64,000 nt of DNA, from positions 25,400 through 89,399 of IMG/VR virus record IMGVR_UViG_3300032304_000700; one strand, 5' to 3'. Positions 13,038-62,306 of this stretch are shown piece by piece; position 1 is the stretch's first letter; the number at the start of each line of letters is the position of its first letter. The notes below the pieces were generated by a model, which was given only the letters and a program-made list of their open reading frames with translations, ran no database searches and was not told the origin of the DNA. This DNA comes from a virus. A program made the position numbers and the translations under genes.

Positions 13038-13163
13038 TTAGAAATTTTTATAGATAAATGGGTCTCTTTTTTTAAGTTCTTCTAATTTCTTTTTAAATCT
13101 TTGTTTTCTTTTTCTTTCTTCATATAATTTTACAAAAAAAGAAATAATTGGCCATTTTTTCAT
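13038..13163 (-). CDS. Small basic hypothetical protein (41 aa)
   Basis: Not in track; MKKWPIISFFVKLYEERKRKQRFKKKLEELKKRDPFIYKNF fills the gap, starting 4 nt after the upstream stop. Confidence 0.6.
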   Translation of the reverse strand: MKKWPIISFFVKLYEERKRKQRFKKKLEELKKRDPFIYKNF

Positions 13164-13167
13164 TTTA

Positions 13168-13728
13168 TTAATTTTTATAATATAATTCTGGATATTCTAC
13201 TAATATATATACTCCTTTGTTTTGTGTAGCATATTTGTATGATAATTCTATATCGGTTGGTGTTTTTAAATCCAATAATTCTATATTTTTACACATAGAT
13301 TTAAATTCTTCAAAATAATTACCTTTATGTTGATGTCCTGGGTCTAATGGTTTATCAGAACCCTTTCCCAATCTAATTATAATATGTGGTTTAAATCCTG
13401 TCATGGATTCGTATTTATCAATATGGTTTATTAATTGGTTTGTTGCACATATTATAAAATCCCAACGAGGATAAAATGTTACTACCAATTTATTAGTCAT
13501 TGATAGTCCCAAACTCATTCCCATTTGAGTTTCTTCCATAACAGGCAATTCAATCATTTTTTCTTTTGATACTTCTCCCAATGTTGTACTCATTGGATTT
13601 CCTGCATAAACTATTTGTTGGCCAATGAATATTGAATTATCCAAATTGGATATGTTTTTCATTGCGATAGTTAATGCATCTTTATATGGTGTATATTCTG
13701 GTTTATTCATAATTAAAAGGCTATCCAT
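13168..13728 (-). CDS. TPP-dependent dehydrogenase E1 beta / transketolase pyrimidine-binding subunit (truncated)
   Basis: ELPVMEETQMGMSLGL, DFIICATNQLIN, PGHQH; lacks the usual C-terminal domain; the real start is probably MNKPEY. Confidence 0.8.
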   Translation of the reverse strand: MDSLLIMNKPEYTPYKDALTIAMKNISNLDNSIFIGQQIVYAGNPMSTTLGEVSKEKMIELPVMEETQMGMSLGLSMTNKLVVTFYPRWDFIICATNQLINHIDKYESMTGFKPHIIIRLGKGSDKPLDPGHQHKGNYFEEFKSMCKNIELLDLKTPTDIELSYKYATQNKGVYILVEYPELYYKN

Positions 13729-14342
13729 TTCCCACTTCCGTAGTGTGGATATTTTGATTTGTAAGTATAATGAATAACATCCGATGGGATGTCTCTTTTT
13801 TTATTCCAAGTTGATTCGGTTGGAGTATATGTTGATACCCCATTATCTTCTACAACAAATATAATTGGTAAGTCAAAGTTTCTTGCATATTTGTGCACCT
13901 CATAGAATATACCACTTTCAAATGACATATCACCAATAAATACAAATACTTTCTCATCACTACCTTTTGATTTAATTCCCATTGCAACTCCTAAAGCAAT
14001 TGATAGAGTACCGCCTACGATTGCAGAAGCGTAGAATTTTTCGTTATGTTCACACATAGTGATTGATTTACCCTCTTTGATTAATTCGGTTGCATAGTCT
14101 GCAGATAATCCTTTTAAAACCCAATGGTAATGAGAACGCCATGTACTGAATACCCAATCGGTTTCTTTAATTCTTTTAAATATTTCTATCAATTGTTCTT
14201 CGTTTCCATTTGATAAATGTACTGGTCCTCTGATTTTACCACTTTCCCATATATCAACAATTTCTTGTTCAAACCTAATAAGTTTTTCTACTGTCCAATC
14301 GATATCTCTTACTATTGGATATTGTTCTAAATTTTTTAGCAT
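13713..14342 (-). CDS. TPP-dependent dehydrogenase E1 alpha subunit (compact)
   Basis: GPVHLSNGNEE, STWRSHYH, AIVGG, TPP motif IGDMSFESG...VVEDNG. Confidence 0.85.
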   Translation of the reverse strand: MLKNLEQYPIVRDIDWTVEKLIRFEQEIVDIWESGKIRGPVHLSNGNEEQLIEIFKRIKETDWVFSTWRSHYHWVLKGLSADYATELIKEGKSITMCEHNEKFYASAIVGGTLSIALGVAMGIKSKGSDEKVFVFIGDMSFESGIFYEVHKYARNFDLPIIFVVEDNGVSTYTPTESTWNKKRDIPSDVIHYTYKSKYPHYGSGKWIAF

Positions 14343-14884
14343 CTATCTCTTTTTTGTAATATTGGTGAATCCGTTGGCCATTCGATTTGAAATTCAGGGT
14401 CATTCCATTTTACAACACCTTGTGCGTTTTCTTCAACAAAATCACCTTCATAAAATAAATTATAATGAAATATACAATCGGTTAATGCATAATGTCCGTT
14501 TGCAAATCCTGGTGGAACTAATACTTGGTCTCTGGTTTTTTCAGTAAGTAAGTAAGAATTCCAATCACCATATGTAGGAGATTCTTTTCTAACATCCAAT
14601 ACTACTAAAAATATATCACCAACCAAAGCTTGAACCAATTTCCAAGTCTTATTATCCCAATGTAATCCTCGTAACACACCTTTGTATGATTTTGAAAATC
14701 TACCATGTACCTTCAAATCTCCGTGCATAAAATTATGAACAGGATGTTCCTCTGGATGATATGTTGTCCAAATTTCTCCTCTATATTCTCTATATACTGA
14801 TGGTGAAAATACTGGTACATCTTTACCAAATGGTTTTAAAAATGATACTTCTATATCATTCCATTTTTTGTCTTTGTAACTCAT
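14336..14884 (-). CDS. rmlC: dTDP-4-dehydrorhamnose 3,5-epimerase family (RmlC cupin)
   Basis: S.KGVLRGLH, KLVQ...G.IF.V.LDVR.ESPTYG, VPPGFANG, WNDP...IEWP. Confidence 0.9.
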   Translation of the reverse strand: MSYKDKKWNDIEVSFLKPFGKDVPVFSPSVYREYRGEIWTTYHPEEHPVHNFMHGDLKVHGRFSKSYKGVLRGLHWDNKTWKLVQALVGDIFLVVLDVRKESPTYGDWNSYLLTEKTRDQVLVPPGFANGHYALTDCIFHYNLFYEGDFVEENAQGVVKWNDPEFQIEWPTDSPILQKRDRC

Positions 14885-15708
14885 ATTAATTTATTTTTAT
14901 TATTTTTTTGAGGCCATCCTATAAATTCTGCAAGTTTTTTGGCATATTCTATGTGACCAAAATATCCAGGATGAGTATCAATATATTCCATCTTCCCCAA
15001 TGTCTCATCTTTTATTGTCATTTTATTTCGGAGACACCAACTGTATATATCATCTGATTTATTTTCTTTATTTGCAAATTTTATAATGTCCGATTTATTA
15101 AATAGTTCCGAAAAATATAATGAATTTCCATTCATTATAAAAATTTTAATATTATTTAATTTGCAAAAAGAATATAATCCAATAAATGCCTTTTCATCTT
15201 GACTAATATTATTCTCAAAACTATAATGGTTTTGATGCCAATTTTCAAATATATGCTTTGATGCACTATCCTCATTTCTATATGATAAATTAAAATAGTC
15301 TCTAGATGCACCGGCAAATGTGTGCACTGAATTATCAACTTTAGAATTTACAATAAAATATTCATTATGTTTTGCACTAAATACATCCGAACGAGACGAA
15401 TCTGGTTTTTCTAAAATTATAAAAAATTTATCTTTATTTTTCCAATTATTATAAATAAAATCATAAGTCATTCTTACAACCCTAGATGTGCTTCCTCCCG
15501 AATTGGCTTCGTTTATACATTTTATTCCTATAATTTCTTCTAATCTTTTTCCAAAATTAACTTCACTTGTAGATTTCCAATCTATACCATACAATTCTTT
15601 ATATATTGGAATTACACCAATTCCCCGAATTTCACTTGGCTCCAGGCCTCCACCTTCACTATGTGAACATCCATTTACATAAAAACAATTATACTTACTA
15701 AAATCCAT
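14881..15708 (-). CDS. SGNH/GDSL-like protein 1
   Basis: NGCSHSEG (block I), NEANSGGS (II), DTHPG (V). Confidence 0.65.
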   Translation of the reverse strand: MDFSKYNCFYVNGCSHSEGGGLEPSEIRGIGVIPIYKELYGIDWKSTSEVNFGKRLEEIIGIKCINEANSGGSTSRVVRMTYDFIYNNWKNKDKFFIILEKPDSSRSDVFSAKHNEYFIVNSKVDNSVHTFAGASRDYFNLSYRNEDSASKHIFENWHQNHYSFENNISQDEKAFIGLYSFCKLNNIKIFIMNGNSLYFSELFNKSDIIKFANKENKSDDIYSWCLRNKMTIKDETLGKMEYIDTHPGYFGHIEYAKKLAEFIGWPQKNNKNKLI

Positions 15709-15709
15709 A

Positions 15710-16681
15710 CTATCCTAAATTTGCATATCCTAATGGAAACCCATTTCTAAACTCTGCTCCCATTTTTGGAACAATCATTTGATATCCTTGAATTAGTTGT
15801 TTAATTCCCATATCCAAATCCCATTCAGGTTTCCATCCAGTATCTTCTATTTTTTTATTTGAAACTATGTAATTTCTTTTATCTGGGTCTTGATAATAAT
15901 CATCATATACTACTGCAAAATCTTTTACATATTTTTGTATTTTTTCCAATAGTTCTTGTTTATTTAAATTTGCAGAAGTCAATCCTACATTAAAAACTTC
16001 ACTATTGTATGTTTTATAATTTTTTAACATAAATAAAAATGCAGATGCAACATCTTCTACATGAATAAAATTTCTTTTAAACGATTTTTCAAATACTACA
16101 ATATATTTGTCTGTGATTGCTTTGTAAACAAAATCGTTTACCAATAAGTCCGTTCTCATACGAGGAGATACACCAAACACAGTTGCTAATCTAAAAATTA
16201 TAGAATCAGTTGATGTTCTTAAAAAATTTTCTGCTTCACATTTGGTTTGACCATAAACGGATATTGGAGTTAATGGGGATTCTTCATCACATTCCAACTG
16301 GCCAGTACCCAACCCATATCCACTATTTGTATTTGGATATAGAATCTTTTTTCCTTTTTTGTTGGTAAATTTAACTATATTTACAATTTGGTCAAAGTTA
16401 ATTTCTTTTGCTAATTGTGGGTCGGCGGCACATGCTGGAAATCCTACAATGGCTGCTAATGGAATTATTATATCATGTTCGTTACACAATCTTTCTAATT
16501 CGGTTACATTACGAACATCACCATAAATGAATTTAAATTTTGAATTTGATGTATATTGTAATAAGGATGTTTGATTGAATAACAATTTATCTAAAACGGT
16601 AACACTATATCCCGCATTTAACATAACTCCAGTAATTACTGAGCCCAAATACCCTGCACCTCCTGTGATAAGAATTTTCAT
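15710..16681 (-). CDS. NAD-dependent nucleotide-sugar epimerase/dehydratase (SDR)
   Basis: ITGGAGYLGS, PLAAIVG, YGQTK catalytic motif, RLATVFG.SPRMR.DLLVN. Confidence 0.9.
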   Translation of the reverse strand: MKILITGGAGYLGSVITGVMLNAGYSVTVLDKLLFNQTSLLQYTSNSKFKFIYGDVRNVTELERLCNEHDIIIPLAAIVGFPACAADPQLAKEINFDQIVNIVKFTNKKGKKILYPNTNSGYGLGTGQLECDEESPLTPISVYGQTKCEAENFLRTSTDSIIFRLATVFGVSPRMRTDLLVNDFVYKAITDKYIVVFEKSFKRNFIHVEDVASAFLFMLKNYKTYNSEVFNVGLTSANLNKQELLEKIQKYVKDFAVVYDDYYQDPDKRNYIVSNKKIEDTGWKPEWDLDMGIKQLIQGYQMIVPKMGAEFRNGFPLGYANLG

Positions 16682-17460
16682 AACTTATTTTTAATATAAG
16701 TATAAAATTGTTTTGAAAAATTCTCATGCCACATTTCACCGGGATGGTGATTATCCCTACCCTTTAAATCATTTTTATAACAATTCATTGGATTAAAAAA
16801 TGTATCGTAATTTATAGTATTTTTTAATTGTGGTTCCAATTCTTTAAAAACATCATAATAATATCCAGCAATTGTATGGAATATTTTAATGTTATGTAAT
16901 TTTGCAATAGTTTCTACAAATGTGTAAGCTTCCCAAAATGTCATTAAATCTTGATAATCATTTCTCAACTCTATAAATAATAAATCTTCACTTTCATTTT
17001 TCCAAACTAAATCATTATGGTTTGCAATTCTAAATCCTCCTACTTTTTTAAATGAACCATTTTCTCTTATATAATCTCTCCTACTAAATCCTGGCCACAT
17101 TATTAAAACCATATTTGGTATAAATTCGGTTGATATTATTTTATAAAGTGTTTTTGCAATAAATGATGTGGATACTCCATACATACCATAATTAAAAACT
17201 TTACCAAATTTATTACCAATTAGATTTGGCCAGATTTTATTATTATCAACACCGATGCCCATTGTCCAAGAACAACCCAATGTTATTACATTATACTCCG
17301 ATGTGTTATACAATGAATCCGAGCGATATCCATGTTCATTCATTTTATATTGAATTGTACCATCATCTATTGTATCACTTGCAAGAGTATTAAATGTTTT
17401 ATTTTTATATTGTTCAAAAACGAAAACATCATTTGATAATATTTTATTAACATCCATCAT
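16678..17460 (-). CDS. SGNH/GDSL-like protein 2
   Basis: YKMNEHGYRS, LGCSWTMGIG, NYGMYGVS, DNHHPG. Confidence 0.65.
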   Translation of the reverse strand: MMDVNKILSNDVFVFEQYKNKTFNTLASDTIDDGTIQYKMNEHGYRSDSLYNTSEYNVITLGCSWTMGIGVDNNKIWPNLIGNKFGKVFNYGMYGVSTSFIAKTLYKIISTEFIPNMVLIMWPGFSRRDYIRENGSFKKVGGFRIANHNDLVWKNESEDLLFIELRNDYQDLMTFWEAYTFVETIAKLHNIKIFHTIAGYYYDVFKELEPQLKNTINYDTFFNPMNCYKNDLKGRDNHHPGEMWHENFSKQFYTYIKNKL

Positions 17461-18899
17461 TACAAAATGATATTGTTTTGTATATTATAAAGTTCATTTA
17501 TAAAGTTAACACCATGTGGTTTTATTTTATGATACTCTAACAATAATTTCTGATTATGAACCAATATGTCTTCCATTTTCCAATACCAATCATGCAATTC
17601 TTCGTTTGACATTGCACATAATTTTTTAATTTCATTGTGAATTGCCAACATTCTATCTTCTTTCGATTCAATTGTGTCGTAAGTTTCATCTATAAAACCA
17701 TCAAATGTTTTAAATCCTAATTCTCTTAATAATTTTAAACCACCTGCAAATGTTACAAATATAAATGGTTGAAAATTTGCAATTGGTTTGAATATTTTTT
17801 CCGTAAGTGATTTGTGTTCTCCGTCTACTAATGTCTCAAATAATATTTCAAAATAAGAATCTAAATGAGCTTTAAAATGCATATCAGTCCATGCATTAAT
17901 ATCACCATAAGTATTTCCACTTTCACTTTGTAAATTATGTGGAAACATACTATACGATGATTTAATTTTTTCAATATCTACATCTAATTTATATTCATTT
18001 ATTAAATGTTGTATAGTTAATACATCCATACCATTTGTAGATAAAAAAGACCAATCACCATATTTTAATAAATCATCATTTATCATTCTATACATGACTG
18101 CCAATCTATGAAATCTGGCATTTCTCATTTTCATCAAATACTTATTTGGTCTTATAGTATTTCTACTATTATTAAAGTCATCTATACTCATTGATAACTT
18201 TAAGTTATTTGATATTCCATCTGCATAAAACCAAGAACTATGGTCTAAACAAAATGGTAAATTTCTAACCTGATATTTTCTTTGATGTGGAGGAAACCAG
18301 TTTTCATATAATTCTTTTGCATTAAAACTATTTACAATTATAAACACAGATGTAGCCGGTAATCCACTATTTTTTAAACATTCGGTTAAAGCATTATGCA
18401 TATTTAAATCTAAAAAAGGTTCCATAGTATAATCTATGTAAATAATTCCTTTTTTTTCTTTTACTTTTTCTAAAACTTCTCTAGAAATGAATTTCCAAAA
18501 ATATGAACCATTTAATTTATCAGCAATTGCATTATTTACCCCTGTGAATTGTGTAAATATTGGATTTGGTCTTATTGGATATATAAATTTTTTGTTTGGA
18601 TTTCTTTCAAATAAAACAGAAGATTCTTTGTATTCTAAATGGTCTCTATAAACATTGGCTTGAAAAAAATACCCATGTGCAGTATTTGGGTTGTGTCCCA
18701 TAGAATCTTCAAATATATCTTTCATAAAAATTTGATTACCTCTTTCGTTTACAGGTGCTTCAAATATTGTAGAATGTAATGTTCTATTAGTGTGTAATGA
18801 GGAGATATAATTTATAATACCAAGTTGTGTATCTAATGCATTTGGTAATATAAATGTTGGAAATATATAATCAAATACAAATGTTAATCTTTTTTTCAT
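17460..18899 (-). CDS. Putative glycosyltransferase with GT10-like C-terminal motif
   Basis: FET...LTEKIFKPI...PFI...LRELGFKTF...DETYD resembles the EN...TEK motif of GT10. Confidence 0.45.
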   Translation of the reverse strand: MKKRLTFVFDYIFPTFILPNALDTQLGIINYISSLHTNRTLHSTIFEAPVNERGNQIFMKDIFEDSMGHNPNTAHGYFFQANVYRDHLEYKESSVLFERNPNKKFIYPIRPNPIFTQFTGVNNAIADKLNGSYFWKFISREVLEKVKEKKGIIYIDYTMEPFLDLNMHNALTECLKNSGLPATSVFIIVNSFNAKELYENWFPPHQRKYQVRNLPFCLDHSSWFYADGISNNLKLSMSIDDFNNSRNTIRPNKYLMKMRNARFHRLAVMYRMINDDLLKYGDWSFLSTNGMDVLTIQHLINEYKLDVDIEKIKSSYSMFPHNLQSESGNTYGDINAWTDMHFKAHLDSYFEILFETLVDGEHKSLTEKIFKPIANFQPFIFVTFAGGLKLLRELGFKTFDGFIDETYDTIESKEDRMLAIHNEIKKLCAMSNEELHDWYWKMEDILVHNQKLLLEYHKIKPHGVNFINELYNIQNNIIL

Positions 18900-18901
18900 A
18901 G

Positions 18902-19693
18902 TTAAGAAAATATTTGAGGCCCTAATTGGTGGGATTTATTAAATGGTATTAAAATTTTTTTAGCGTAAGCTTGGAATTGAGATTCTATACTTCGTGTGTC
19001 AACAGCTGTTAATGATAATTCATATCTTTCTTTAGATTCTAATGTATCATATTCTGGAAAAATTTCTTTTAAATATTGATAATGCATTAATTGTGTAGGA
19101 TGTGTGTCATGTGTGTCTCTATCTTCATATTTTACATAATTGGATTCATTTTCAAAATTTATACGTTTCCAATCATCCATTGCTTCTTTTATATCTAATG
19201 TATCTTTTATATATGTGAAATATTTATTCATTAATTTATTTAATCTATGTTCGTTTTCTAATACAATATTATTCATAGATGTTAAAAATGTATGTTTAAT
19301 ATTTTTTAGAGTTAATATTTCTTTTATGGTTTTTACTGCTATATAAGTTTGATAAATACTCCATTCGTCAGACCACATATTTTCTAAAAAATCCTTTGGT
19401 ATATCTGTGTTCCAGTAAATATTACCACCATGTTTCCAATTGTTTTTATTTCTGAATGAGAATCTGTCCATATTCGTAAACATAACAACTACATAATCAT
19501 CTTCATTTAAAATATTACTAACTTCTATAAATCTATTCATTATAAATGTATTAGATGCACCTCCTTGGCCATAATTCATATATTCTTCAAAATTAGCACC
19601 CATATAATCTGCCCAAGTTGCAGTTACATATCCCGTATAACTACACCCAAATGTTATTAATCTTTTACCAACCATTATTTTTAATTTTTTCAA
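18902..19693 (-). CDS. SGNH/GDSL-like protein 3
   Basis: FGCSYT, NYGQGGASN, DTHPT; probable start at MVGKRL. Confidence 0.65.
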   Translation of the reverse strand: MKKLKIMVGKRLITFGCSYTGYVTATWADYMGANFEEYMNYGQGGASNTFIMNRFIEVSNILNEDDYVVVMFTNMDRFSFRNKNNWKHGGNIYWNTDIPKDFLENMWSDEWSIYQTYIAVKTIKEILTLKNIKHTFLTSMNNIVLENEHRLNKLMNKYFTYIKDTLDIKEAMDDWKRINFENESNYVKYEDRDTHDTHPTQLMHYQYLKEIFPEYDTLESKERYELSLTAVDTRSIESQFQAYAKKILIPFNKSHQLGPQIFS

Positions 19694-20450
19694 TTATAGA
19701 ATTATAAACAATTTCATGCCCGGTCTTTGAGGTATGCATGGTTCCCATATCATCCGGATATTGATGTGATAATTTCATAAAATCTGCATCTACTATATTT
19801 TCATCATTAATATAACCATCAAATCCTTTGTCGTATGTTAAAAATAAATGTCGTATTCCTTTATTTTTCAAAAGTATATGTGACATCACCATCATTCCTA
19901 TATCATATTGTCTTTGAATCTGGTCATCAAATATATTTAAATAATAATCTTTAAGTAATTTCATTTTATCATTACCTTCACTATCAAATCGGGCATAATA
20001 ATTAGATTGCCAGTTAGGATTATCTATACAATTATCAACATAATCTATTATACTATTAAAATTTTCGGTTAATAGTTTCCCATTATAATTTTTGTCATTT
20101 TGCATTGGATTGGGTATGGTGTATTTATAATTATCTTTACCATATGGTGGATACTGATGATAGTTTACATCCGTATTTTTAATTTCTCCAACAAAATCAT
20201 ATCCTTCCTTAAACCACTCCGTTCTATTATATGTGGTCACACCTATACACATGAAATCTATATTAGATATATTTTCCAATGCATATTTTACTTGTAAAGA
20301 TATTGAAAAATTTGAACTGGAACCTTTAGCTAAATTTATTAAATTTTTATTTAGATTTGATGCCAATAAACTGCCATACGGTTCCTTTTCTAAATTATGA
20401 CATCCTATTCCAATATTGAAGGAATCACCACATATAACTAAATTATTCAT
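19665..20450 (-). CDS. SGNH/GDSL-like protein 4
   Basis: CGDSFNIG, NLAKGSSSN, MHTSKTGH. Confidence 0.65.
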   Translation of the reverse strand: MNNLVICGDSFNIGIGCHNLEKEPYGSLLASNLNKNLINLAKGSSSNFSISLQVKYALENISNIDFMCIGVTTYNRTEWFKEGYDFVGEIKNTDVNYHQYPPYGKDNYKYTIPNPMQNDKNYNGKLLTENFNSIIDYVDNCIDNPNWQSNYYARFDSEGNDKMKLLKDYYLNIFDDQIQRQYDIGMMVMSHILLKNKGIRHLFLTYDKGFDGYINDENIVDADFMKLSHQYPDDMGTMHTSKTGHEIVYNSIIEKIKNNGW

Positions 20451-21962: not shown

Positions 21963-21965
21963 ATA

Positions 21966-23587: not shown

Positions 23588-23588
23588 T

Positions 23589-24335
23589 TTAAAAATAAAT
23601 GTTGTTTTCTATATAAAATTGAAAATAATTACCTATACCAGTCATATCCCATATTTTATATTCAGTTGAATTTTTAAAATCACAAAATATTTTATATTTG
23701 TCTTTATATGGTATAGATTCATTTAATATAGGTAATCCCTGAAATGTATCCGTTTCTAAATATTTATTTTCATAATTACTTTTTGCATCGATAACATCTG
23801 TAATTTTTAATTTATCATTTAATGCAAATAATAATTTATATTCAAATGAACCAATATTTTTATATTCATCTTCAGTAATCATATTACCACATCCCAACCA
23901 TATTAAAGAATCGGTATATGTTAGTTTTTTCATATTCGTATATTCTATAAAACAAACAAGATTATCATTTACATATAAATTAATAATTGAATTAACATCA
24001 TCACATATCACTACATATTCATTAAATTCATTTTCTAATTCAGTTGGTAATGTATATGTTGCATTCTTGCAAATAATTTCTTCGTTGGAATCAAAAAACC
24101 AATAATTTAATTGAATCATTGTATTTCCATCATCATTTAATATTGCAGAAAGTCCACAATGTCTACCATTTCTTGCAAAAAAATATGAAGGATTTTCTTT
24201 CATTATAGATTCTTTTATAATTTTTACACTTGCAAAAATAGTAAAATCTTTTTCCATAAAATCATCAATTCTTTTTGATGTCTCATATCTTCCAACTGGA
24301 AGAATACAAAATATATTATCTTTATTGACTATCAT
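23589..24335 (-). CDS. Stand-alone LamG/concanavalin A-like domain protein
   Basis: DFTIFASVK, INLYVND, IWLGCG, IWDMTGIGN pattern; resembles the inserts in the two GT7 genes. Confidence 0.5.
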   Translation of the reverse strand: MIVNKDNIFCILPVGRYETSKRIDDFMEKDFTIFASVKIIKESIMKENPSYFFARNGRHCGLSAILNDDGNTMIQLNYWFFDSNEEIICKNATYTLPTELENEFNEYVVICDDVNSIINLYVNDNLVCFIEYTNMKKLTYTDSLIWLGCGNMITEDEYKNIGSFEYKLLFALNDKLKITDVIDAKSNYENKYLETDTFQGLPILNESIPYKDKYKIFCDFKNSTEYKIWDMTGIGNYFQFYIENNIYF

Positions 24336-24338
24336 AAA

Positions 24339-25754
24339 TTATAATTTAATACTTTTGCAAAAATGATAAAATTCTTCCAATTCAGGGAATGTTTTACAAA
24401 AATCAGTTCCTCTTCTAATATCATGATTAGAAAAATATTGATAAAAATTATATCTGTTTTTCATTTGTTGTTCTATATCTTGTGGTGAAATCATCCAATC
24501 GTAAATTCTTTTCACTTTTTGTACCTCCACATCACTATATCCAATATATTCCGGTGTGAATGATGGGGATGCATAATAGGTTATTAATTTGGATTGTTCT
24601 AAAATATATTTAGAAAAATCATATGGTAAAATTTGAACAGTTTGATGTTGTGGATGTCTTAAGTAAGATGAATCTAAAAATGTTGCAGAATTCCAATATC
24701 TATCGGTTGAACCATATTCTCTTTTTAAATTATAAACTTCAGTAATTAACTTATTATAATTAAATAAACTTAATGCATTATACGTAGACATAAAAGTTAT
24801 ATTAGTTCTTTTTAATGAACCTAATATTTTATTTACATTGTCCCAAAAACGATTAAATTCTAATCCTGTTCTAATATATTCAGCTTGTTCTCCCCATGTA
24901 TCAGTAGATGTAAAAATTACAATTTCTTTAACTCTATCTTCACCTTCTATTATTTTAAGTTTTTCTATAAATTTATCTATCAAATTATCCGGTGCACCTA
25001 AATTTGAATTAATTGCTAATTTTAATTCTTTGTTTGGATTTTTATTTTCAATTATAAAATCTAATACACCCCACGTATCTTTCGATAATAGTGGTTCTCC
25101 TCCGGTAATTCTAAATGTATGTAAATCTCTATATAATTCTGGCCACCACTTCCAAAAGGCTTCTACATATGGATTATATTGACTATGTGGGATTGGGAAT
25201 TTATCTTCAGCCTTTAACCATGCATCACCATTGAATCCATCTAATGTTGGATATGCACCAAATTTATTTATTTCCTCAACCCACTTGGAACTATATGCAG
25301 GGCCACAATATGAACATTTAAAATTACAAGCATTACTAAATGCAACTTCTACATATTTTGGATTATAATCATCTCTCCAATTTGAATTAAATATTTCTTC
25401 TTTAAATGGGAGTGACCAACTTTCTCCTGATTTAAAGATTCTATCACTAAACCTATCCGAATTATCTTCTACATTCCAACAATAATCACATTCGGTGGGC
25501 CTTGCACCACTTAACATTTCTTTTCTACGAAGTTTTTTATATCTCGTATTATGTAGTGCAGATGGATTTCTTGCAATTTCCGTTTCTGATATTTTATGAG
25601 TACGAGGGTGGTGGCATGAGTGATTGTGGCCACTTTGTAATTGTAAAGTTACTTGTGTCCATTTTGCCAAACACATTCCATTTCCTACTTGATTTAAATC
25701 TTCTTTTACTTTAACATAAAATGGATTATCAAAATTTCCTTTATCTTCTGCCAT
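24339..25754 (-). CDS. Radical SAM protein with N-terminal SPASM/twitch-like domain
   Basis: CNFKCSYC, ITGGEPLL, INSNL; N-terminal CLAKW...SCHH...ECDYCW. Confidence 0.9.
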   Translation of the reverse strand: MAEDKGNFDNPFYVKVKEDLNQVGNGMCLAKWTQVTLQLQSGHNHSCHHPRTHKISETEIARNPSALHNTRYKKLRRKEMLSGARPTECDYCWNVEDNSDRFSDRIFKSGESWSLPFKEEIFNSNWRDDYNPKYVEVAFSNACNFKCSYCGPAYSSKWVEEINKFGAYPTLDGFNGDAWLKAEDKFPIPHSQYNPYVEAFWKWWPELYRDLHTFRITGGEPLLSKDTWGVLDFIIENKNPNKELKLAINSNLGAPDNLIDKFIEKLKIIEGEDRVKEIVIFTSTDTWGEQAEYIRTGLEFNRFWDNVNKILGSLKRTNITFMSTYNALSLFNYNKLITEVYNLKREYGSTDRYWNSATFLDSSYLRHPQHQTVQILPYDFSKYILEQSKLITYYASPSFTPEYIGYSDVEVQKVKRIYDWMISPQDIEQQMKNRYNFYQYFSNHDIRRGTDFCKTFPELEEFYHFCKSIKL

Positions 25755-25756
25755 AA

Positions 25757-27202
25757 TTACGATTTTACGTTTATAAGTTTATGTTTGTCAAATATTGTAT
25801 CAGTACTAATATATGTATATTTCATATTATTTATACCATCATTTTTATAATTAATATTACCTTGTTGCATTTCTAATATGTATCTTTTTTCATTTTTTGC
25901 AGTAGTGTCTCCTTTTGCCCATTTATCTATTCCACCAACACTTATTAAACCTTCGGTTTGATGTGGTAAACATTTAAATTTGCCGTCGCGTCTGTATGGT
26001 AATATAGTATGTGGTATTATTATATCATCATTTTCAAAAGAAACATTTTTAATATTAAATTGTGTATTTTCTACATTGTTTTTAATTTTATTATTTGCAA
26101 ATGATAAATCAAATATCATTCCATTTTCTATATCATTTTTATGCAATGATTTTATCTCATTTGGATTTAAACATCTATCCCATATTTTTATTTTAGATAT
26201 ATTTCCTTTAAAATATTTAGAATTAGTATCACTTTGGGTTGGTGAATATCCTATATAAAAATCTTCCATTCCATATCTTTTTAATGGTTCTTCAAAAATT
26301 AATGGTGATAGAGTTCCAGTTCCTAATCTTGCATCACTTTCTCTACCATTTAAATAAAAATGTATTTTTTTATTTGTTGCATCAACTGACATAGTTACCC
26401 AGCTCCATTGGTTTTCATATCTTTTAATCCATTGATATAGATGTTGTTTTTTTCTGTCCCATAACATAGCAGTATATGCTCTACTATTATTGAATGATAT
26501 ACCCCAATCAAAACCTGGTTTTCTAAGAATTGGATATTCACAAAATCTTCTTTCGGTGTCACCAATCAAATAAATAGGGACTTTTTCTATTTGTTGTTCT
26601 GCTTTTACTAATATAGAAACAGTATGAGAGTTTGATATGGCATTTCTTAATTTAATATTAACTGGAAATGATATTTTTGAATTTTTACCATTAAAATATC
26701 CAGTTGTATCATTTTCATTATAATCTAATTTAGTTTTTTCGACATATCCTTCCATTACACATCTCCAAAATAGGTCATCATCTTCCATGCCCCAATCCCA
26801 ATAATCATTGGAATATCCATTGGTTTTTTCTACTTGTTCTTTTGAAAATACAACCGCACCCCCAAAGTATTCCTCATATTTTAATTGATAATCCGATTGT
26901 GAAATACGAACTGCAATATGTTGTGGATTTCCTTCTGGAAATGAATAATCACAACTTTCATCTTCTGGTACCATATCAATATCATGCCAAACTATATAAT
27001 CACATCCATCATCAAATGCATATTTTGCAGCAATGTTCTTCATTAAACCTCTATTAAAAAGTTTATCGTCACATTGATGTGCTAGATAAATTGTATGTTC
27101 AATTCCTCTTTCGGTTAAGAACTTGGATACATGTGGAACAAATATATTCATATGTTCCTCTCTATTTCTATATGGTACGCATACTCCTAATTTGTGGCTC
27201 AT
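25757..27202 (-). CDS. GT7 (beta-1,4-galactosyltransferase-like) with inserted LamG domain
   Basis: VPYRNREEH, FNRGLMKN, HDIDMVP, YFGGAV, NGYSNDYWDWGMEDDD, then LamG, then RRDGKF.CLPH...DGINNMKY. Confidence 0.85.
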   Translation of the reverse strand: MSHKLGVCVPYRNREEHMNIFVPHVSKFLTERGIEHTIYLAHQCDDKLFNRGLMKNIAAKYAFDDGCDYIVWHDIDMVPEDESCDYSFPEGNPQHIAVRISQSDYQLKYEEYFGGAVVFSKEQVEKTNGYSNDYWDWGMEDDDLFWRCVMEGYVEKTKLDYNENDTTGYFNGKNSKISFPVNIKLRNAISNSHTVSILVKAEQQIEKVPIYLIGDTERRFCEYPILRKPGFDWGISFNNSRAYTAMLWDRKKQHLYQWIKRYENQWSWVTMSVDATNKKIHFYLNGRESDARLGTGTLSPLIFEEPLKRYGMEDFYIGYSPTQSDTNSKYFKGNISKIKIWDRCLNPNEIKSLHKNDIENGMIFDLSFANNKIKNNVENTQFNIKNVSFENDDIIIPHTILPYRRDGKFKCLPHQTEGLISVGGIDKWAKGDTTAKNEKRYILEMQQGNINYKNDGINNMKYTYISTDTIFDKHKLINVKS

Positions 27203-28620
27203 ATTGATACTGTAATATGTGTTTGATTTCCTACTGTTGATTTACTTAATTCCTTAAATTTTAAATTAGACAACCCGTCATGTTTTGTATTTTTATGGCC
27301 AGGTGCAACTTCATTTATATATCGTAACTGATTATATCTAGTTGTTATATTTTTCCAAGAACCATTTACGAAACCATTTTCTTCATGTGGTAATAATTCA
27401 AAAGTACAATCTCTTCTATGTGGGATATAAATTATTTTATTTTTTTCAGTAGATACTCCGGCCATTCCACAATTATTAACAATTCCATCATTATTATTGG
27501 CGGATAAATCTATAAGTTTATATTCTTTCATAAATTTGGCATCGTAATAAGTTTTTAATAAATGAGGTGATTGATATTCCCCATAACTTTGACTAAGACC
27601 AAAAAAATCATTTGTGGATATTTCTAAAATTTCTTCTTCTTTCAATATTCCATCAAATATTGCAAATGATTGAATCAATCCTTTAAAGAATTTAGGATTA
27701 GTTTCTCTATTTGGGTCACCTGCTCCTAAATAAAAATATGGTTCTTTTTTATATAAGTGTAATCTATTTTCTATTTTTTTGGAACCAACGATAATACCAT
27801 CTTGATACATTGTCACTATTTCATTTTTTGGGTCAATAGTTACACATATATTTGTTTTATAATTTGGTTTTATTTCTGAATTTATATAAATGATATTTTC
27901 ACATGCATCATATATTTCAAAATTATATCTACCATATGAATTATAATTTATACTCATGTCAAATCCAGGTATTGTAAATACTGAAAATGTGTCATCATAA
28001 GTTTCCGGATTACAATTTAATTCTTCCGGCATAAATGATGCAAATAATGTAATCTGATTTTTTGTATCTATTGGATTTTTACCAACTACATATGAGTCTT
28101 TTCCATTAAATTGTAAAGATGCCATATTAACACCTGGCATTTTTATTTCTTTTCTATATAATTCAACATTATGTTCTCTACATCGATGTAGTAAATCATT
28201 ATCCTCATATCCCCAACCCCAATATTCATTTGAGTAACCATTAATTGCTTCAAATATAGAATTAGGAAACATTGTTACTCCACCAAAATATTCGTCAAAC
28301 AAAATTCTATTAAAAGATTTGTCAATTGATATAAAATTTGATGCCAAATGTATAGGGTGGTTAGAATAAGTATAATCTGCATCTATTGGTATCATATCTA
28401 CATCATGAAAGACAATATAATCACATTTTAATTTTTTGGCATAAAAAAATCCTATATTTAATAGTTTTCCTCTATTAAATATTTTAGAATCATCTTGTTC
28501 AACTACAATTAATTCATAAGGTATATCCGTATTACTTAGATAATTTGATATAACTCTTTTGAATATTAGTAATTGTCTATCTCTAGCCCTGTATGGAACT
28601 ATGATACCTAATTTTTGCAT
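27199..28620 (-). CDS. GT7 (beta-1,4-galactosyltransferase-like) with inserted LamG domain, paralog
   Basis: IIVPYRAR, FNRGKLLNIG, FHDVDMIP, YFGGVT, NGYSNEYWGWGYEDND, then LamG, then HRRD.TFELLPH...DGLSNLKF...ITVSI. Confidence 0.85.
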   Translation of the reverse strand: MQKLGIIVPYRARDRQLLIFKRVISNYLSNTDIPYELIVVEQDDSKIFNRGKLLNIGFFYAKKLKCDYIVFHDVDMIPIDADYTYSNHPIHLASNFISIDKSFNRILFDEYFGGVTMFPNSIFEAINGYSNEYWGWGYEDNDLLHRCREHNVELYRKEIKMPGVNMASLQFNGKDSYVVGKNPIDTKNQITLFASFMPEELNCNPETYDDTFSVFTIPGFDMSINYNSYGRYNFEIYDACENIIYINSEIKPNYKTNICVTIDPKNEIVTMYQDGIIVGSKKIENRLHLYKKEPYFYLGAGDPNRETNPKFFKGLIQSFAIFDGILKEEEILEISTNDFFGLSQSYGEYQSPHLLKTYYDAKFMKEYKLIDLSANNNDGIVNNCGMAGVSTEKNKIIYIPHRRDCTFELLPHEENGFVNGSWKNITTRYNQLRYINEVAPGHKNTKHDGLSNLKFKELSKSTVGNQTHITVSI

Positions 28621-28790
28621 TACTTATCCTGACTTAATTTATGAAATTCAGTCAAATAATATTGAATACGATTGCTCCACTCATCTTTATCAATTTCTTC
28701 AAACCAAACGGTAAGTGCGTCTAATGAATTTGCAATCTTTTCTAAAGCTTTTATTTTTTTTGTTTCTAATAATAACTCTTCGTCTGTCAT
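28620..28790 (-). CDS. Small hypothetical protein (56 aa)
   Basis: Not in track; MTDEELLLETKKIKALEKIANSLDALTVWFEEIDKDEWSNRIQYYLTEFHKLSQDK; its stop overlaps the next start (TAATG). Confidence 0.65.
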   Translation of the reverse strand: MTDEELLLETKKIKALEKIANSLDALTVWFEEIDKDEWSNRIQYYLTEFHKLSQDK

Positions 28791-28806
28791 AATTTATTTA
28801 TTTTTA

Positions 28807-28838
28807 GTAATATATGATTTTTTATTTAAATTACCAAA
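28807..28838 (-). promoter_or_regulatory. Bacteroidota-type promoter TTTG-N20-TATATTAC heading the main glycan operon
   Basis: Minus strand TTTG gtaatttaaataaaaaatca TATATTAC. Confidence 0.55.
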
Positions 28839-29687
28839 TTATATTGCAATAATTTTTTTAAGTAATTTTATCCATTGTTTATATCCAAATTCTTTTCCTA
28901 TGTATTCAAACATATATTCCGTATTTGTAACATCTATTTCAAAATTATTACTTCTCAATGATTGATACATTTTTAAATATTCATTTGAAAAAGAATAATC
29001 TTTTTTAATATCAGCAACTTCTTTAATCCTTTTAATGCAAGTTGAATCCCATTTGAAATGATGTACCTGAACATTATATTCATCAATAGGTGCAATCAAC
29101 GGATGATTCCAACCTTGCCATCTCCATGTTGTTTGTCCGTCTATTTTTGCGTAGTGTTGACCGGGTGTAATTTCAATATATCCCCTCATTATACATATTT
29201 TATTTGGACATGCACCACTCATTGGGTATCTAAAAAATCCTGCAACTGGAAATTGGTCGAATATATTTTCTTTTTTATTTATCTTTGGAAAATCTCCTGT
29301 TTGGCCAATTCTATCAATGAATCCACCTCTTACTAATTCCCACCCGTTTCTATCACAATCTGAAATTATTTCTTTTAGTGGTTTTGAGTAAATATGTAAT
29401 TCATCATCATCCGAAACTACCCACCAATCATTAGGAAATAACATTTTAGTTTCATTATATAATTCGGTAACATATTCCCAATTAAATTTTTCTTTGGTTA
29501 CTCTTTGTACAATTTTTGCTGTATTAAATTCTTTTGTTATTTTTAAAACTTCATTATAAGTACTAGAACCTTCCCACTCATAAACTACTACATACATTTC
29601 GTCCACCAAATCTTTATAATGATTCAGCATATGCCACAAAGTGTCTACCCTGCTGCCAGTAACAGTAACTAATCTTATTTTATTCAT
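28839..29687 (-). CDS. GT2-like glycosyltransferase
   Basis: HMLNHY..LVD, DWWVVSDDDE (DxD-type), ITPGQH, VHHFKW. Confidence 0.7.
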   Translation of the reverse strand: MNKIRLVTVTGSRVDTLWHMLNHYKDLVDEMYVVVYEWEGSSTYNEVLKITKEFNTAKIVQRVTKEKFNWEYVTELYNETKMLFPNDWWVVSDDDELHIYSKPLKEIISDCDRNGWELVRGGFIDRIGQTGDFPKINKKENIFDQFPVAGFFRYPMSGACPNKICIMRGYIEITPGQHYAKIDGQTTWRWQGWNHPLIAPIDEYNVQVHHFKWDSTCIKRIKEVADIKKDYSFSNEYLKMYQSLRSNNFEIDVTNTEYMFEYIGKEFGYKQWIKLLKKIIAI

Positions 29688-29708
29688 TTAATTTTTTATT
29701 AATCTTTT

Positions 29709-30467
29709 TTAAAGCTTTCTTGTTAGCAGTGCTAAACCAGTGCTTGTAACTTTTTTATCAAACATACGAAAATTTTTTAAATTTACCAAATTCCATTTTT
29801 TATCCTCTTCTAATTCTTTAATAAATTTACATGGTCCGTCAAAAGGAACAAAATCTTCCTTTGAATTTTCCGTAACAACTAATGTATCATGGTAGGTTTG
29901 GTCGGTATCGTGAATTGTTATAATACCATTTTCAGACATTATAGTTGAATATAATTCAAAATCTTTTTTAACTCCTTCGTATGAATGGTCTCCGTCAATA
30001 TGTAAATAATCTATTTTCATATCTTGTCTTACAAAATAATCATAAAAAGCTCTTTCGGATGTTTCTAATATAACTTGTGGTGAAAAGTGTTGTCTTAAAA
30101 AACTATTTTCATTTGTCCAATCGGTAAACCCACCAACACCATTAGCAGCATCTATTATTATTGTAGTTCCAATATCACCCCATTCTGCTTGGCCATTTCC
30201 TTCAAATATATTTTGAGAATGTAAATCCATTCTAGCTTGTGTCATAAGTCTTGGAATAAAACCTCCTCCTGACCCAATACAGACACATATTTTTGCTCTA
30301 ATAAATTGAATGAAAGAATATACCAATAATCCATCACCCAGGTGTAAATCGGTTGCACCATGTGTCCAACGATATTTGACAGGTTCTAAAACTTCTTCAT
30401 CATTTTCGTTTATTGTATGATTATTTGTTAAATACTTTTTTATAAGTACATCATTAAGTAACTGCAT
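29709..30467 (-). CDS. Class I SAM-dependent methyltransferase (Methyltransf_24-like)
   Basis: VCIGSGGG, IDYLHIDGDHSYEGVKKD, GIITIHD. Confidence 0.85.
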   Translation of the reverse strand: MQLLNDVLIKKYLTNNHTINENDEEVLEPVKYRWTHGATDLHLGDGLLVYSFIQFIRAKICVCIGSGGGFIPRLMTQARMDLHSQNIFEGNGQAEWGDIGTTIIIDAANGVGGFTDWTNENSFLRQHFSPQVILETSERAFYDYFVRQDMKIDYLHIDGDHSYEGVKKDFELYSTIMSENGIITIHDTDQTYHDTLVVTENSKEDFVPFDGPCKFIKELEEDKKWNLVNLKNFRMFDKKVTSTGLALLTRKL

Positions 30468-31426
30468 ATTTCTTTAATCCAATTTTGTTTATTTGTATAT
30501 TTTGTCAATCCATCTCTCAATTTACAAAATTCTAAATTTACTTTTTCAAATTCATCCTCTTGTAATTCTAAATATCTTTGATGAAATTCCCCTTTACTAC
30601 TTGCTCTATATTTGTAATCAATACCTTTCATCCAATCGGTATGTATAATTGGAACTTTACCATTATCAACTGCATCAAAAATTGCATATCCAAATGGTTC
30701 TTTGGTATAACATCCATGAAATATTTGAAAGTTTTTTTGAAAAAAATTATTATGAAAATTATAATCAAATTCCATAAAATTATGATAGTCCGAATTAGTT
30801 TTTGACCCTTCTAACATTCTTTTGTAATCGTATTTGTTTGAAAAGATAATTGATGGAATGCAATCTAAATAGTGTGCATTCTTTCTGGTCTCACATCTTG
30901 CAGCATATCCAATTTTATTAGTTATTATTCCTGTGAATGGTTTATTGTGTTTCCATTCATAGTAGTTTGTAATCGTTTTTGTTTTTGGATATTGATTGTG
31001 TATTGTATCGTTTTCATATCCTATCCAAACTATGTTTTCGGAATTATCTAATATTTCTTTTTGCCATTCCCAATCGACTTTTGTCATTATATTTTCGTAA
31101 TCAGAATTTAAACCCAACATATCAGGAATAAACGCATGGACAAATGTAAGATAAGTTTTGTGTAAATAGTTTTTAATAATAGGATTTTGTTTGTAAGAGT
31201 GATGTAAGAAAATAATCTTATCACATTCATCTAATATTTTATCAACTTCTTTTTCGTTTCCAAAAGTGTAGATTGCATCAATTTCTCTAATCAACGGCCT
31301 GCCATCAATTATAATTTTATAATCTTCTTTGACTAATGGTAAAACATTTTCTATAAAGTTATTGCACCAAATATCAGCACCACCGATAACATTTTTTCCA
31401 TAACCTGTTGTAATAAAAACTATCAT
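30440..31426 (-). CDS. GT-B (GT4-like) glycosyltransferase
   Basis: GGAD N-terminal motif, ARCETRKN, EPFGYAIFDAV..G..PI. Confidence 0.75.
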   Translation of the reverse strand: MIVFITTGYGKNVIGGADIWCNNFIENVLPLVKEDYKIIIDGRPLIREIDAIYTFGNEKEVDKILDECDKIIFLHHSYKQNPIIKNYLHKTYLTFVHAFIPDMLGLNSDYENIMTKVDWEWQKEILDNSENIVWIGYENDTIHNQYPKTKTITNYYEWKHNKPFTGIITNKIGYAARCETRKNAHYLDCIPSIIFSNKYDYKRMLEGSKTNSDYHNFMEFDYNFHNNFFQKNFQIFHGCYTKEPFGYAIFDAVDNGKVPIIHTDWMKGIDYKYRASSKGEFHQRYLELQEDEFEKVNLEFCKLRDGLTKYTNKQNWIKEICSYLMMYL

Positions 31427-31444
31427 AACTTATTTTAATATTTT

Positions 31445-62039: not shown

Positions 62040-62304
62040 TTTGTTGTGTTTTGAATTTTTCGATGGTTTCTTTTATTTGATAAAATATAGAACCTACTTC
62101 ATCGTCCTTCTCAAACATTTCACGAGAATCTATTTCTCTTAATGCCTCCAGTAATGATTCGTTTCTTTCTAACTCGGTTTGTAAAAATATATCATTTTCT
62201 ATAATGATGACTTCGTATTTTTCTAATTTATTTAAAAGATTATAAGTTGCAAATGACAATGCAACTACTAATACTGATAATATTGTGATTATTGTATATA
62301 ACAT
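62029..62304 (-). CDS. Small membrane-anchored hypothetical protein
   Basis: N-terminal TM helix plus coiled coil, FEKDDEVG..F motif. Confidence 0.6.
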   Translation of the reverse strand: MLYTIITILSVLVVALSFATYNLLNKLEKYEVIIIENDIFLQTELERNESLLEALREIDSREMFEKDDEVGSIFYQIKETIEKFKTQQNAN

Positions 62305-62306
62305 AA

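Follow-up and report, generated by a model that had tools for sequence, protein, structure and literature searches.

We analysed a stretch of 64,000 nucleotides, here called the window, which corresponds to bases 25400-89399 of the 89,399-base linear IMG/VR virus record IMGVR_UViG_3300032304_000700. Directly behind a tail-fibre gene, the window carries an island of about 22 tightly packed genes (13168-31426) whose predicted products include nucleotide-sugar enzymes, glycosyltransferases (GTs) and tailoring enzymes, a content that is consistent with a soluble cytoplasmic line for glycan assembly and tailoring. With middling confidence, we propose that the phage uses this line to build a tailored oligosaccharide that includes a modified heptose-type sugar, and that the acceptor is a virion protein associated with the fibre. 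The island has homologs in at least 262 viral contigs, which excludes chance, and in relatives Pro/Thr-rich fibre-adjacent proteins are encoded beside prolyl 4-hydroxylase (P4H) and hydroxyproline (Hyp)-transferase families, which favours a virion protein as the target. The phage, an uncultured one from freshwater, is by its genes a distant T4-like myovirus.

All long open reading frames (ORFs) of the window, including every feature described below, lie on the minus strand. A preliminary reading of the letters alone (the sequence-only reading) had described more than 20 tightly coupled genes after the tail fibre, and this is the arrangement we found: 21 ORFs of at least 120 amino acids (aa) fill 13168-31426 with overlapping or abutting ends, and the sole apparent gap (28620-28842) is occupied by a 56-aa ORF (28620-28790, read from the sequence) whose stop overlaps the next start. 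In the direction of transcription the island is preceded by the gene for a 1540-aa tail fibre with a C-terminal S74 chaperone domain (31843-36465; Peptidase_S74, E 5e-12; tail-fibre PHROGs), and the co-directional array passes from the fibre gene into the island without interruption.

An island with a conserved core across a phage lineage

A scan of IMG/VR for relatives of GT7a, one of two GT7-like proteins of the island, yielded the at least 262 contigs, from which 80 loci were kept for tblastn counts; each locus extends no more than 10 kb to either side, and contig ends cut many of them short. The radical S-adenosylmethionine (SAM) enzyme (rSAM), GT7a and GT7b were found in all 80, the GT2-like protein in 79, the methyltransferase in 77 and the GT4-like protein in 72, followed by the GT10-like protein U479 (61), the short-chain dehydrogenase/reductase (SDR; 60), the cupin epimerase (55), E1-alpha (53) and the stand-alone LamG protein (47). 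The SGNH-like paralogs were found in 2-14 loci each, Rx1 in 14 and Rx2 in 13. A six-gene core stands in identical order in 72 of the 72 loci that have all six genes, and a fibre homolog lies upstream in 49 of the 57 loci whose flank exceeds 3 kb.

Variability across relatives, a check proposed with the sequence-only reading, takes the form of variable cassettes. Relatives carry extra rSAM genes (B12- and SPASM-type included), a DegT aminotransferase, UDP-glucose dehydrogenase, a HAD phosphatase, additional SDRs, a cytidylyltransferase-like protein or a third GT7-LamG protein. Recent capture of an intact host O-antigen or capsule locus had been named as a case that would refute that reading; we reject it, because the core extends through the whole lineage and the rSAM enzyme is only 36-47% identical to its best cellular homologs.

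The lineage is abundant. One run that carries the island has a summed contig word depth of ~770, the island recurs at ~97% identity in run contigs of at least three further studies, all aquatic or freshwater, and E1-alpha has 4334 homologs at E ≤1e-5 in a set of 5.8 billion proteins, the best 120 of which are all at least 83% identical. Five relatives are represented by complete genomes of 198-288 kb. We also considered 'genome' matches at 55-79% identity (L086-L090) as evidence on the host and rejected them: they are short contigs of low G+C content that carry island genes, with a fuller island in L088 and L090, and the metagenome-assembled genomes (MAGs) in which they sit have conflicting taxon labels (Pelagibacter, Pelagibacterales, Alphaproteobacteria, Gammaproteobacteria and Flavobacteriales). 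They are probably phage DNA binned into MAGs.

Among cultured phages, neither the island DNA (megablast) nor the GT7a protein found a match, and the rSAM protein matched only Ralstonia phage RsoM2USA (37% identity) and, weakly, two Vibrio phages. In RsoM2USA, a jumbo phage, the rSAM gene (217327-218748) is surrounded by unannotated genes; an SDR epimerase gene some 6 kb away was the only match among its neighbours, and the locus holds none of the other island genes.

Five candidate glycosyltransferases and their LamG modules

The sequence-only reading had counted up to seven candidate transferases. Four of these, two GT7 proteins and two GT-B proteins, stand on family or structural matches, a GT2-like fifth is weaker, and the proposal that two Rx ('RxD') proteins are transferases gained no support.

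GT7a (25757-27202) and GT7b (27199-28620), which are 34% identical, each match Glyco_transf_7N and Glyco_transf_7C above the Pfam cut-offs and carry a Laminin_G_3 domain. Over residues 2-168 they align with B4GalT7 and B4GalT1 at E 1.2e-32 to 5.7e-27 (the lowest value for GT7a with B4GalT7), such that 'HDIDM' falls on 'HDVDL' and 'WGMEDDD' on 'WGREDDE' of B4GalT7, motifs that we take to be the metal-binding DxD and the acidic WGxEDD. In an alignment of 20 sequences four residues (H73, D74, D76 and D143) do not vary, and for E140 and D141 conservation is at least 90%. On these matches both proteins are assigned to a CAZy GT7-like class with a predicted beta-4-galactosyltransferase fold. The stand-alone LamG-like protein (23589-24335) aligns over 211 columns with the LamG part of the GT7-LamG alignment, which is columns 170-386 (hhalign probability 99%, E 5e-18), in agreement with the LamG domains noted earlier.

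For two further proteins the predicted structures confirm a GT-B fold. The model of the GT4-like protein (30440-31426; pLDDT 87.7, pTM 0.85) finds GlgM, tll1591, PimA and BshA by Foldseek (E 2e-9 to 6e-8, TM 0.57-0.66). That of U479 (17460-18899) is of lower quality (pLDDT 70.4, low at residues 11-134); its Foldseek match is OtsA (E 9e-5), and VIA places it at Z 9-11.3 against many GT4, GT20, GT63 and GT72 enzymes, with four GT10 fucosyltransferases at Z 9.0-9.3. Residues Y349, E355, T356, E367, K368 and P372 of U479 are invariant, and its GT10-like label comes from a resemblance of this C-terminal motif to what we take to be the fucosyltransferase motif of GT10 (F-E-x...T-E-K); there is no Pfam GT10 match. 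Structural neighbours of U479 in viruses reach E 7e-16, the best being a protein from a Mimivirus MAG.

The GT2-like protein (28839-29687) is a weaker, GT-A-like candidate: it matches Glyco_tranf_2_4 below the cut-off (E 0.0021), has an invariant D93-D94-D95-E96 and finds GT2 and GT92 proteins among its Atlas neighbours. Profile searches against the PDB with the island proteins U479, U328, U248, GT2-like and Rx returned nothing usable.

A probable heptose-type rather than rhamnose-type enzyme pair

The reading of two island genes as RmlC and an SDR held at the level of family, as a cupin epimerase and an SDR. The identity with the dTDP-rhamnose enzymes did not: the best matches are of heptose type. 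The cupin (14336-14884) belongs to dTDP_sugar_isom (Pfam, E 7.8e-34), and its eight best PDB matches, at 120-131 bits, are C3 or C3/C5 epimerases of the Campylobacter jejuni capsular heptose pathway, five deposited as GDP-D-glycero-4-keto-D-lyxo-heptose 3- or 3,5-epimerases and three (7ang, 7an4, 7ani) under a dTDP-epimerase name; the remaining dTDP RmlC entries score at most 92.5 bits. The extended SDR (15710-16681; Epimerase, E 1.2e-33) has PDB 6VO6/6VO8 as its best match (residues 2-309, E 2.8e-98), ahead of a runner-up at E 3e-21, and 6VO6 is presumably Cj1427, the GDP-heptose C4-dehydrogenase. The pair thus looks like a heptose-type C4-dehydrogenase and C3,C5-epimerase.

In C. jejuni these steps run from C4-dehydrogenase to C3/C5-epimerase to C4-reductase (PMC10680097). 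Pfam and profile scans of the window island found a single SDR and no C4-reductase to complete the pathway; in relatives a second SDR (~23% identical) adjoins the E1-beta gene. A GmhA-type isomerase (SIS_2) was found in none of the five complete relatives and a sugar-1-phosphate nucleotidyltransferase (NTP_transferase) in one, so the starting nucleoside diphosphate (NDP)-sugar is presumably supplied by the host.

Two genes at the downstream end encode the pair of thiamine pyrophosphate (TPP) E1 proteins that had been called from the letters. The E1-alpha-like protein (13713-14342, 209 aa, PP domain) covers positions 2-199 of phrog_34187 (E 4.6e-51) and matches E1_dh (E 1.3e-18) and human pyruvate dehydrogenase (PDH) E1 alpha (E 9e-12). 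The E1-beta-like protein (13168-13728, 186 aa, Pyr domain only) covers positions 237-401 of the same 405-position profile (E 1.3e-20), with Transket_pyr below the Pfam cut-off (E 2.2e-4) and PDH E1 beta NF006667 at E 4e-6. The profile alignments confirm the two as halves of one profile, that is, a predicted split, minimal TPP enzyme. TPP enzymes such as YerE and AviB1/B2 add two-carbon branches to 4-keto sugars. Since the mini-enzyme is a conserved neighbour of the dehydrogenase-epimerase pair, we guess, speculatively and by analogy, that it might give the island sugar a carbon branch.

Tailoring and accessory genes

The rSAM enzyme (24339-25754) scores 336.8 bits against NF033640 (E 1.9e-100; curated cut-off 170), and the cysteines of its CxxxCxxC motif, C143, C147 and C150, are invariant in 16 sequences, which places it by sequence in this N-terminal-twitch family. 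Its closest cellular homologs, most of them from Bdellovibrionota, are often arrayed in tandem with other rSAM genes, and some have carbamoyltransferase, DUF6071, GT1 or U479-like genes nearby. At several Bdellovibrionota loci (L110, L122-L124, L131 and others) up to about eight rSAM paralogs surround the NF033640 homolog in tandem; at L138 rSAM and U479-like genes alternate twice, and at L152 a SPASM rSAM gene has an M16 peptidase gene, a GT1 gene and a carbamoyltransferase gene nearby. The island also encodes a class I SAM methyltransferase (29709-30467; Methyltransf_24, E 7.4e-11). Both enzymes had been named in the sequence-only reading, as had six SGNH-like proteins.

Paralog alignments bear out the six. 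Paralog 1 (14881-15708) matches DUF6075 (E 7.4e-5) and paralog 5 (20443-21324) DUF6071 (E 1.9e-9); paralog 2 (16678-17460), which has no Pfam match, and paralogs 3 (18902-19693), 4 (19665-20450) and 6 (21324-21962) are joined to them by common G-x-S, N and C-terminal H columns. The G and S of block I are invariant in all six paralogs and in 28 of 28 family members, and the N66 column in the six. Across the 28 members H268 does not vary, N67, N75 and H274 reach at least 90% conservation, and no conserved Asp was found ahead of the His. The family profile weakly matches GDSL, SGNH or carbohydrate-esterase PDB chains (best E 5e-4 and 9e-4; about 12 of the 19 matches listed).

Rx1 (21966-22835; phrog_13607, E 6e-6), Rx2 (22835-23587), aligned as its paralog, and a third paralog at 41554-42225, which had been noticed outside the island, belong to what the alignments indicate is a real, virus-enriched family related to DUF7796: this domain was detected in 9 of 22 members, and the Atlas neighbours are viral. 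A profile search with Rx1 found no PDB match. A relationship of Rx to GT2-like, also considered, was rejected, as hhalign found none. We found no literature on DUF7796.

Also outside the island, as had been reported, a Nol-type carbamoyltransferase is encoded at 59635-61338 (E 1e-116 to phrog_1601). Two unassigned ORFs follow it (61341-62942 noted) and then peptide deformylase; carbamoyltransferases also accompany rSAM genes at several bacterial loci. A 2-oxoglutarate (2OG) oxygenase said to lie elsewhere in the window could not be recovered: searches by Pfam, tblastn and hidden Markov model (HMM) found neither a P4H nor any other 2OG oxygenase in the window or in the 89-kb record.

A candidate acceptor beside the fibre

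Between fibre and island lies the gene for G132, a small protein of 132 aa (31445-31843) and a candidate glycan acceptor. Its N-terminal module of ~45 aa is common to ORFs in 21 of 72 loci. In relatives the linker behind the module consists of (TP)n, ~16 prolines, TPQVTPAPNV repeats or poly-Thr (L044, L072), and the C-terminal domains are variable, DUF5977 and BACON among them. P4H-type 2OG oxygenases were detected by HMM, and confirmed by Pfam, in 14 of the 80 loci. HPAT occurs in five (L033, L056, L057, L061, L077) and the Skp1-type GlcNAc transferase PF11397 in four (L056, L057, L061, L081), together six loci. All these genes sit between the fibre and the conserved GT core, and Pro-rich G132-family ORFs adjoin them. 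At L065 and L053 a P4H gene likewise follows a Pro-rich ORF, one that lacks the N-terminal module.

Within the G132 family, all 11 members that reach at least 0.325 Pro per 40-aa window have a P4H gene within 3 kb, as against none of the 10 others. This cut-off was first set at 0.33, which gave 9/9 against 2/12 (Fisher p 2e-4), and was changed after the data had been seen, both exceptions scoring 0.325; and because the loci are interrelated, forming about six sequence groups by eye, the statistic overstates their independence.

The window itself has neither HPAT nor PF11397 nor a Pro-rich acceptor, and the linker of its G132 is Gly6, without Pro/Thr repeats. With P4H missing too, the best evidence on the acceptor comes from relatives only, and these include the closest one (L036, GT7a 97% identical), which has a (TP)n protein and a P4H. 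The window fibre is itself rich in Ser and Thr (up to 36% per 100 aa). Further fibre-like proteins (1417, 593, 562, 157 and 965 aa), encoded on the record upstream of the window, have Ser-rich repeats with 50-57% Ser+Thr per 40-aa window, and several of the fibre-like proteins reach 53-57%.

Near-identical strains from other studies retain the entire island. In ~97% identical contigs from two of these studies, the C-terminal part of G132 (window 31435-31730) is swapped for 260 other letters, and GT7b (window 27433-28145) has diverged at equal length in two stretches that cross the borders of its LamG domain (residues ~158-226 and ~305-396). The two changes, a single variant, may reflect co-variation of enzyme and acceptor. 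Across the mapped loci, GT7b type and G132 type showed no simple correspondence.

Some G132-family proteins have further features. That at L056:337-1983 has a Hint/intein-like C-terminal module (Cys...HN pattern by eye), and that at L075:2508-5018 a weak Intein_splicing match (E 4.8e-4, below cut-off), which suggests possible C-terminal self-cleavage of some family members. At L072 a SPASM rSAM gene follows the poly-Thr member.

Proposed pathway and alternatives

The reading proposed at the outset can be laid out as a series of steps. The SDR would oxidise a host-supplied NDP-heptose, or a similar NDP-sugar, at C4, and the cupin would epimerise it at C3/C5, the substrate being suggested by homology; speculatively, the mini E1 alpha/beta enzyme may add a two-carbon branch to the 4-keto sugar. 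The five GTs (two GT7-LamG, one GT-A-like, two GT-B), whose specificities we can only predict, would build the glycan, and the LamG modules may recognise the acceptor. Tailoring would fall to the methyltransferase, the rSAM enzyme, the six SGNH-like proteins as putative acyl-esterases or transferases and perhaps the distant carbamoyltransferase. As relatives suggest, the acceptor would be the fibre-adjacent G132-family protein, the Ser/Thr-rich fibres, or both.

A more specific version goes further, and we offer it tentatively, as one possibility that we lean somewhat against in its full form. Here a freshwater T4-like lineage would perform a eukaryote-style, cytoplasmic O-glycosylation of mucin or extensin type on a modular fibre-tip protein of the G132 family, with poly-Thr, (TP)n or poly-Pro stretches that are prolyl-hydroxylated in some members. 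A core of GT4-like, GT-A, two to three GT7-LamG and GT10-like enzymes would use a phage-made modified, possibly C-branched heptose, the product would be methylated and acylated, LamG would read the acceptor, and the resulting coat would protect the fibre or adjust host recognition.

Several observations weigh against a glycosylated virion protein. The glycan is deduced from genes alone, whatever protein would carry it, and the window phage lacks P4H and Hyp-transferase and has a Gly6 linker in G132; the association of P4H with Pro-rich ORFs comes from a cut-off adjusted post hoc in related loci. Peripheral GTs of lipopolysaccharide (LPS) or capsule synthesis likewise lack membrane segments and could use host lipid-linked intermediates, and the nearest characterised homologs of the SDR-epimerase pair serve a bacterial capsule. 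The E1 pair, the rSAM enzyme and the SGNH-like and Rx proteins have no assigned role. Co-transcription of fibre and island has no motif support: TATAAATA stands 44 nt upstream of the fibre gene start, and this T4 late-promoter motif is not enriched, with 21 found against 20.6 expected by chance. Sigma-70 promoters and terminators were likewise at chance level.

Three other products of the island have to be weighed against a virion glycan. The enzymes could remodel the host surface, acting at the inner face of the inner membrane on host lipid-linked LPS or capsule intermediates and relying on host priming, flipping and export, for instance to block superinfection. Many LPS GTs are soluble or peripheral. 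The SDR and cupin, moreover, find their best matches in the capsular heptose pathway of C. jejuni (PMC10680097), an LPS role was proposed by Sullivan et al. for 24 sugar genes of cyanophage P-SSM2 (PMC1079782), and bacterial chromosomes bring together relatives of three of the genes (rSAM, DUF6071 and carbamoyltransferase), once beside a GT1-family gene. The sequence-only reading had seen no flippase, polymerase or lipid-carrier transferase, and the searches agree: no island protein has a transmembrane-type hydrophobic segment, the highest 19-residue scores falling on Rossmann, TPP- and SAM-binding motifs, and Bac_transf (PF02397), Glycos_transf_4 (PF00953) and Polysacc_synt (PF01943) were each found in 0/5 complete relatives with positive controls. 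Further points against host-surface remodelling are the position of the island, fixed directly behind the fibre gene across the lineage, the P4H, HPAT and Skp1-type GlcNAc-transferase families, which act on proteins and here adjoin Pro-rich ORFs, and the GT7-LamG proteins, which lack a match among cultured phages (no cellular loci were searched for them). We consider this explanation unlikely, while keeping it in serious view. A specialised metabolite, free or bound to a peptide, or a modified peptide, with rSAM enzymes acting on the peptide and GTs decorating it, is quite improbable. It would fit the tandem arrays of cellular rSAM homologs, one of them with a SPASM rSAM and an M16 peptidase, the up to five rSAM paralogs in some phage relatives (L026) and the SPASM rSAM gene behind the poly-Thr gene of L072. 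The window island, however, has no precursor-peptide signature, transporter or protease, it is dominated by nucleotide-sugar enzymes and at least five GTs, and all 80 loci pair the rSAM gene with GT7; if the 'peptide' were the G132-family protein, the proposal would merge with virion glycosylation.

The sequence-only reading had left the target open between virion proteins and DNA, and the evidence favours the former. For DNA, the GT-B enzymes would glycosylate a hydroxylated pyrimidine, as in T4, RB69/DLP3 or MT-TET-GT systems, and the rest of the island would make and decorate the sugar. The phage is T4-like, and both GT-B models resemble the T4 beta- and alpha-glucosyltransferases (U479 by VIA at Z 11.3 and 10.4, GT4-like by Foldseek), a resemblance tied with that to dozens of other GT-Bs. 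In RB69/DLP3, sugar-nucleotide genes and GTs make poly-arabosylated 5-hydroxycytosine (5hoC; PMC13326640), and metaviromic GT clusters glycosylate 5-hydroxymethylcytosine (10.1101/2023.12.21.572611). A ThyA-family protein occurs in 4/5 complete relatives, and two of them, G003 and G005, have beside a canonical-looking ThyA a second, weak ThyA-family ORF (G003:C1:203325-203660, G005:C1:186869-187219; 233-238 aa; 19.9 and 26.8 bits) that could be a hydroxymethylase-like enzyme; the record, besides, represents only ~49% of a genome. Against this, and as had been noted for the window, no ThyA/hydroxymethylase family (PF00303) was found in the 89-kb record, nor in G002, a complete relative that bears the island, and where ThyA occurs it is far from the island (~120 kb in G001, ~38 kb in G003). 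Tet_JBP (PF12851) was found in 0/5 complete relatives, a weak negative since the control was positive nowhere. Known systems cluster the base-modifying enzyme, nucleotide kinase and GTs (PMC13326640). Without a base-hydroxylating enzyme in or near the island and without ThyA in G002, a DNA target loses support, and we regard it as very improbable. We know of no DNA role for GT7, LamG, P4H or HPAT.

Relation to known systems

Phage-encoded virion glycosylation has, to our knowledge, been shown experimentally only in a few actinobacteriophages, and we know of no explanation since 2005 for the sugar-gene blocks of T4-like cyanophages. Calling the island an undescribed system, as the sequence-only reading did, was too strong, because precedents in P-SSM2, mycobacteriophages and giant viruses show that the kind of system is already known. 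P-SSM2, likewise a T4-like myovirus, has 24 sugar genes in two clusters, a large block that includes epimerases, transferases and synthases with functions deduced from annotation; the block was interpreted as altering host LPS (PMC1079782), and we liken it by description, not by homology. The present island differs in its fixed place behind the fibre gene, its conservation across hundreds of contigs and its GT7-LamG fusions, TPP E1 pair, N-twitch rSAM and SGNH arrays. Mycobacteriophages Che8 and Rita likewise use phage-encoded soluble GTs to put glycans on virion proteins in the cytoplasm (Freeman et al. 2023, through PMC11256854); there, however, a few GTs act on capsid proteins of actinobacteriophages, whereas here some 22 genes, including sugar-nucleotide modification and tailoring, lie beside a fibre, and the glycan is predicted from genes. 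Giant viruses also encode nucleotide-sugar enzymes and GTs and make unusual virion glycans without host ER/Golgi (PMC9614988), and the Mimivirus-MAG neighbour of U479 adds to the likeness, which we draw by kind of system, not by orthology; these are bacteriophages with a different gene set.

Of the capsular heptose pathway of C. jejuni (Cj1427 C4-dehydrogenase, Cj1430 C3/C5-epimerase, Cj1428 C4-reductase; PMC10680097), the island has homologs of the dehydrogenase and epimerase steps; it differs in lacking the reductase and capsule export genes, in the absence of GmhA from the complete relatives and in the attached E1 pair. Cytoplasmic Hyp-linked glycosylation (Skp1 P4H/Gnt1; plant HPAT; PF13640, PF11397, PF23452) is paralleled by the six related loci in which a P4H-type oxygenase and a Hyp-transferase family adjoin a Pro-rich ORF, a parallel known from genes alone and outside the window. 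Phage DNA glycosylation (T4 glucosyl-hydroxymethylcytosine, RB69/DLP3 arabinosyl-5hoC, MT-TET-GT) shares the T4-like phage, GT-B enzymes and sugar-nucleotide genes, but the island has no linked base-hydroxylating enzyme, nucleotide kinase or dCTPase.

In the literature within reach (subscription journals and bioRxiv supplements lay outside it), we found no report of a conserved fibre-linked island, of GT7-LamG fusions in phages, of a split mini-E1 beside 4-keto-sugar enzymes, or of P4H and Hyp-transferase families beside Pro/Thr-rich fibre-adjacent phage proteins. GT7-LamG, the minimal split E1, HPAT/Skp1-type GTs with P4H and the N-twitch rSAM family thus appear to be enzyme types rarely or never reported in phages. 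With its same-order core behind a fibre gene across hundreds of contigs, the island offers a defined test case, and the G132 family a concrete acceptor candidate. If the proposal is right, receptor-binding structures of environmental phages would be glycoproteins, which would bear on host-range prediction, on interactions of phages with antibodies or grazers and on enzyme discovery.

Phage identity and surroundings of the island

The record is ~49% complete by CheckV, and its G+C content is 24-36% along the window and 24-30% within the island. A gp23-type capsid protein is encoded just upstream of the window, and the other T4-like genes include those for a gp20-type portal, large terminase, prohead protease, baseplate wedge proteins, SbcCD and primase. 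By portal, the closest cultured phages are Microcystis phage Mel-JY01 (51.5%), on which we found no literature, and Flavobacterium phages vB_FspM_immuto (47.5%). Two complete relatives have BACON domains in G132-family proteins (L084:3163-5313, L075:2508-5018); taken with the Flavobacterium-phage portal relatives, they hint weakly that part of the lineage infects Bacteroidota.

The record bases upstream of the window (L003:8817-17588) encode, besides the Ser-rich fibre-like proteins, a second fibre that carries an S74 chaperone and a structural LamG protein whose similarity to the LamG of the GT7 proteins is only generic (hhalign probability 5%). Within the window, a T7 endonuclease I family protein is encoded at 40858-41283 (Phage_endo_I, E 4e-57) in this T4-like genome. 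The downstream neighbour of the island in transcription order (10764-13016) is a 750-aa fusion of a ligase/nucleotidyltransferase-like N-terminal part (K-x-D-G by eye) with a cytidylyltransferase/NMNAT-like C-terminal domain, and it is kept as the right-hand neighbour of the island in L037, L038 and L048.

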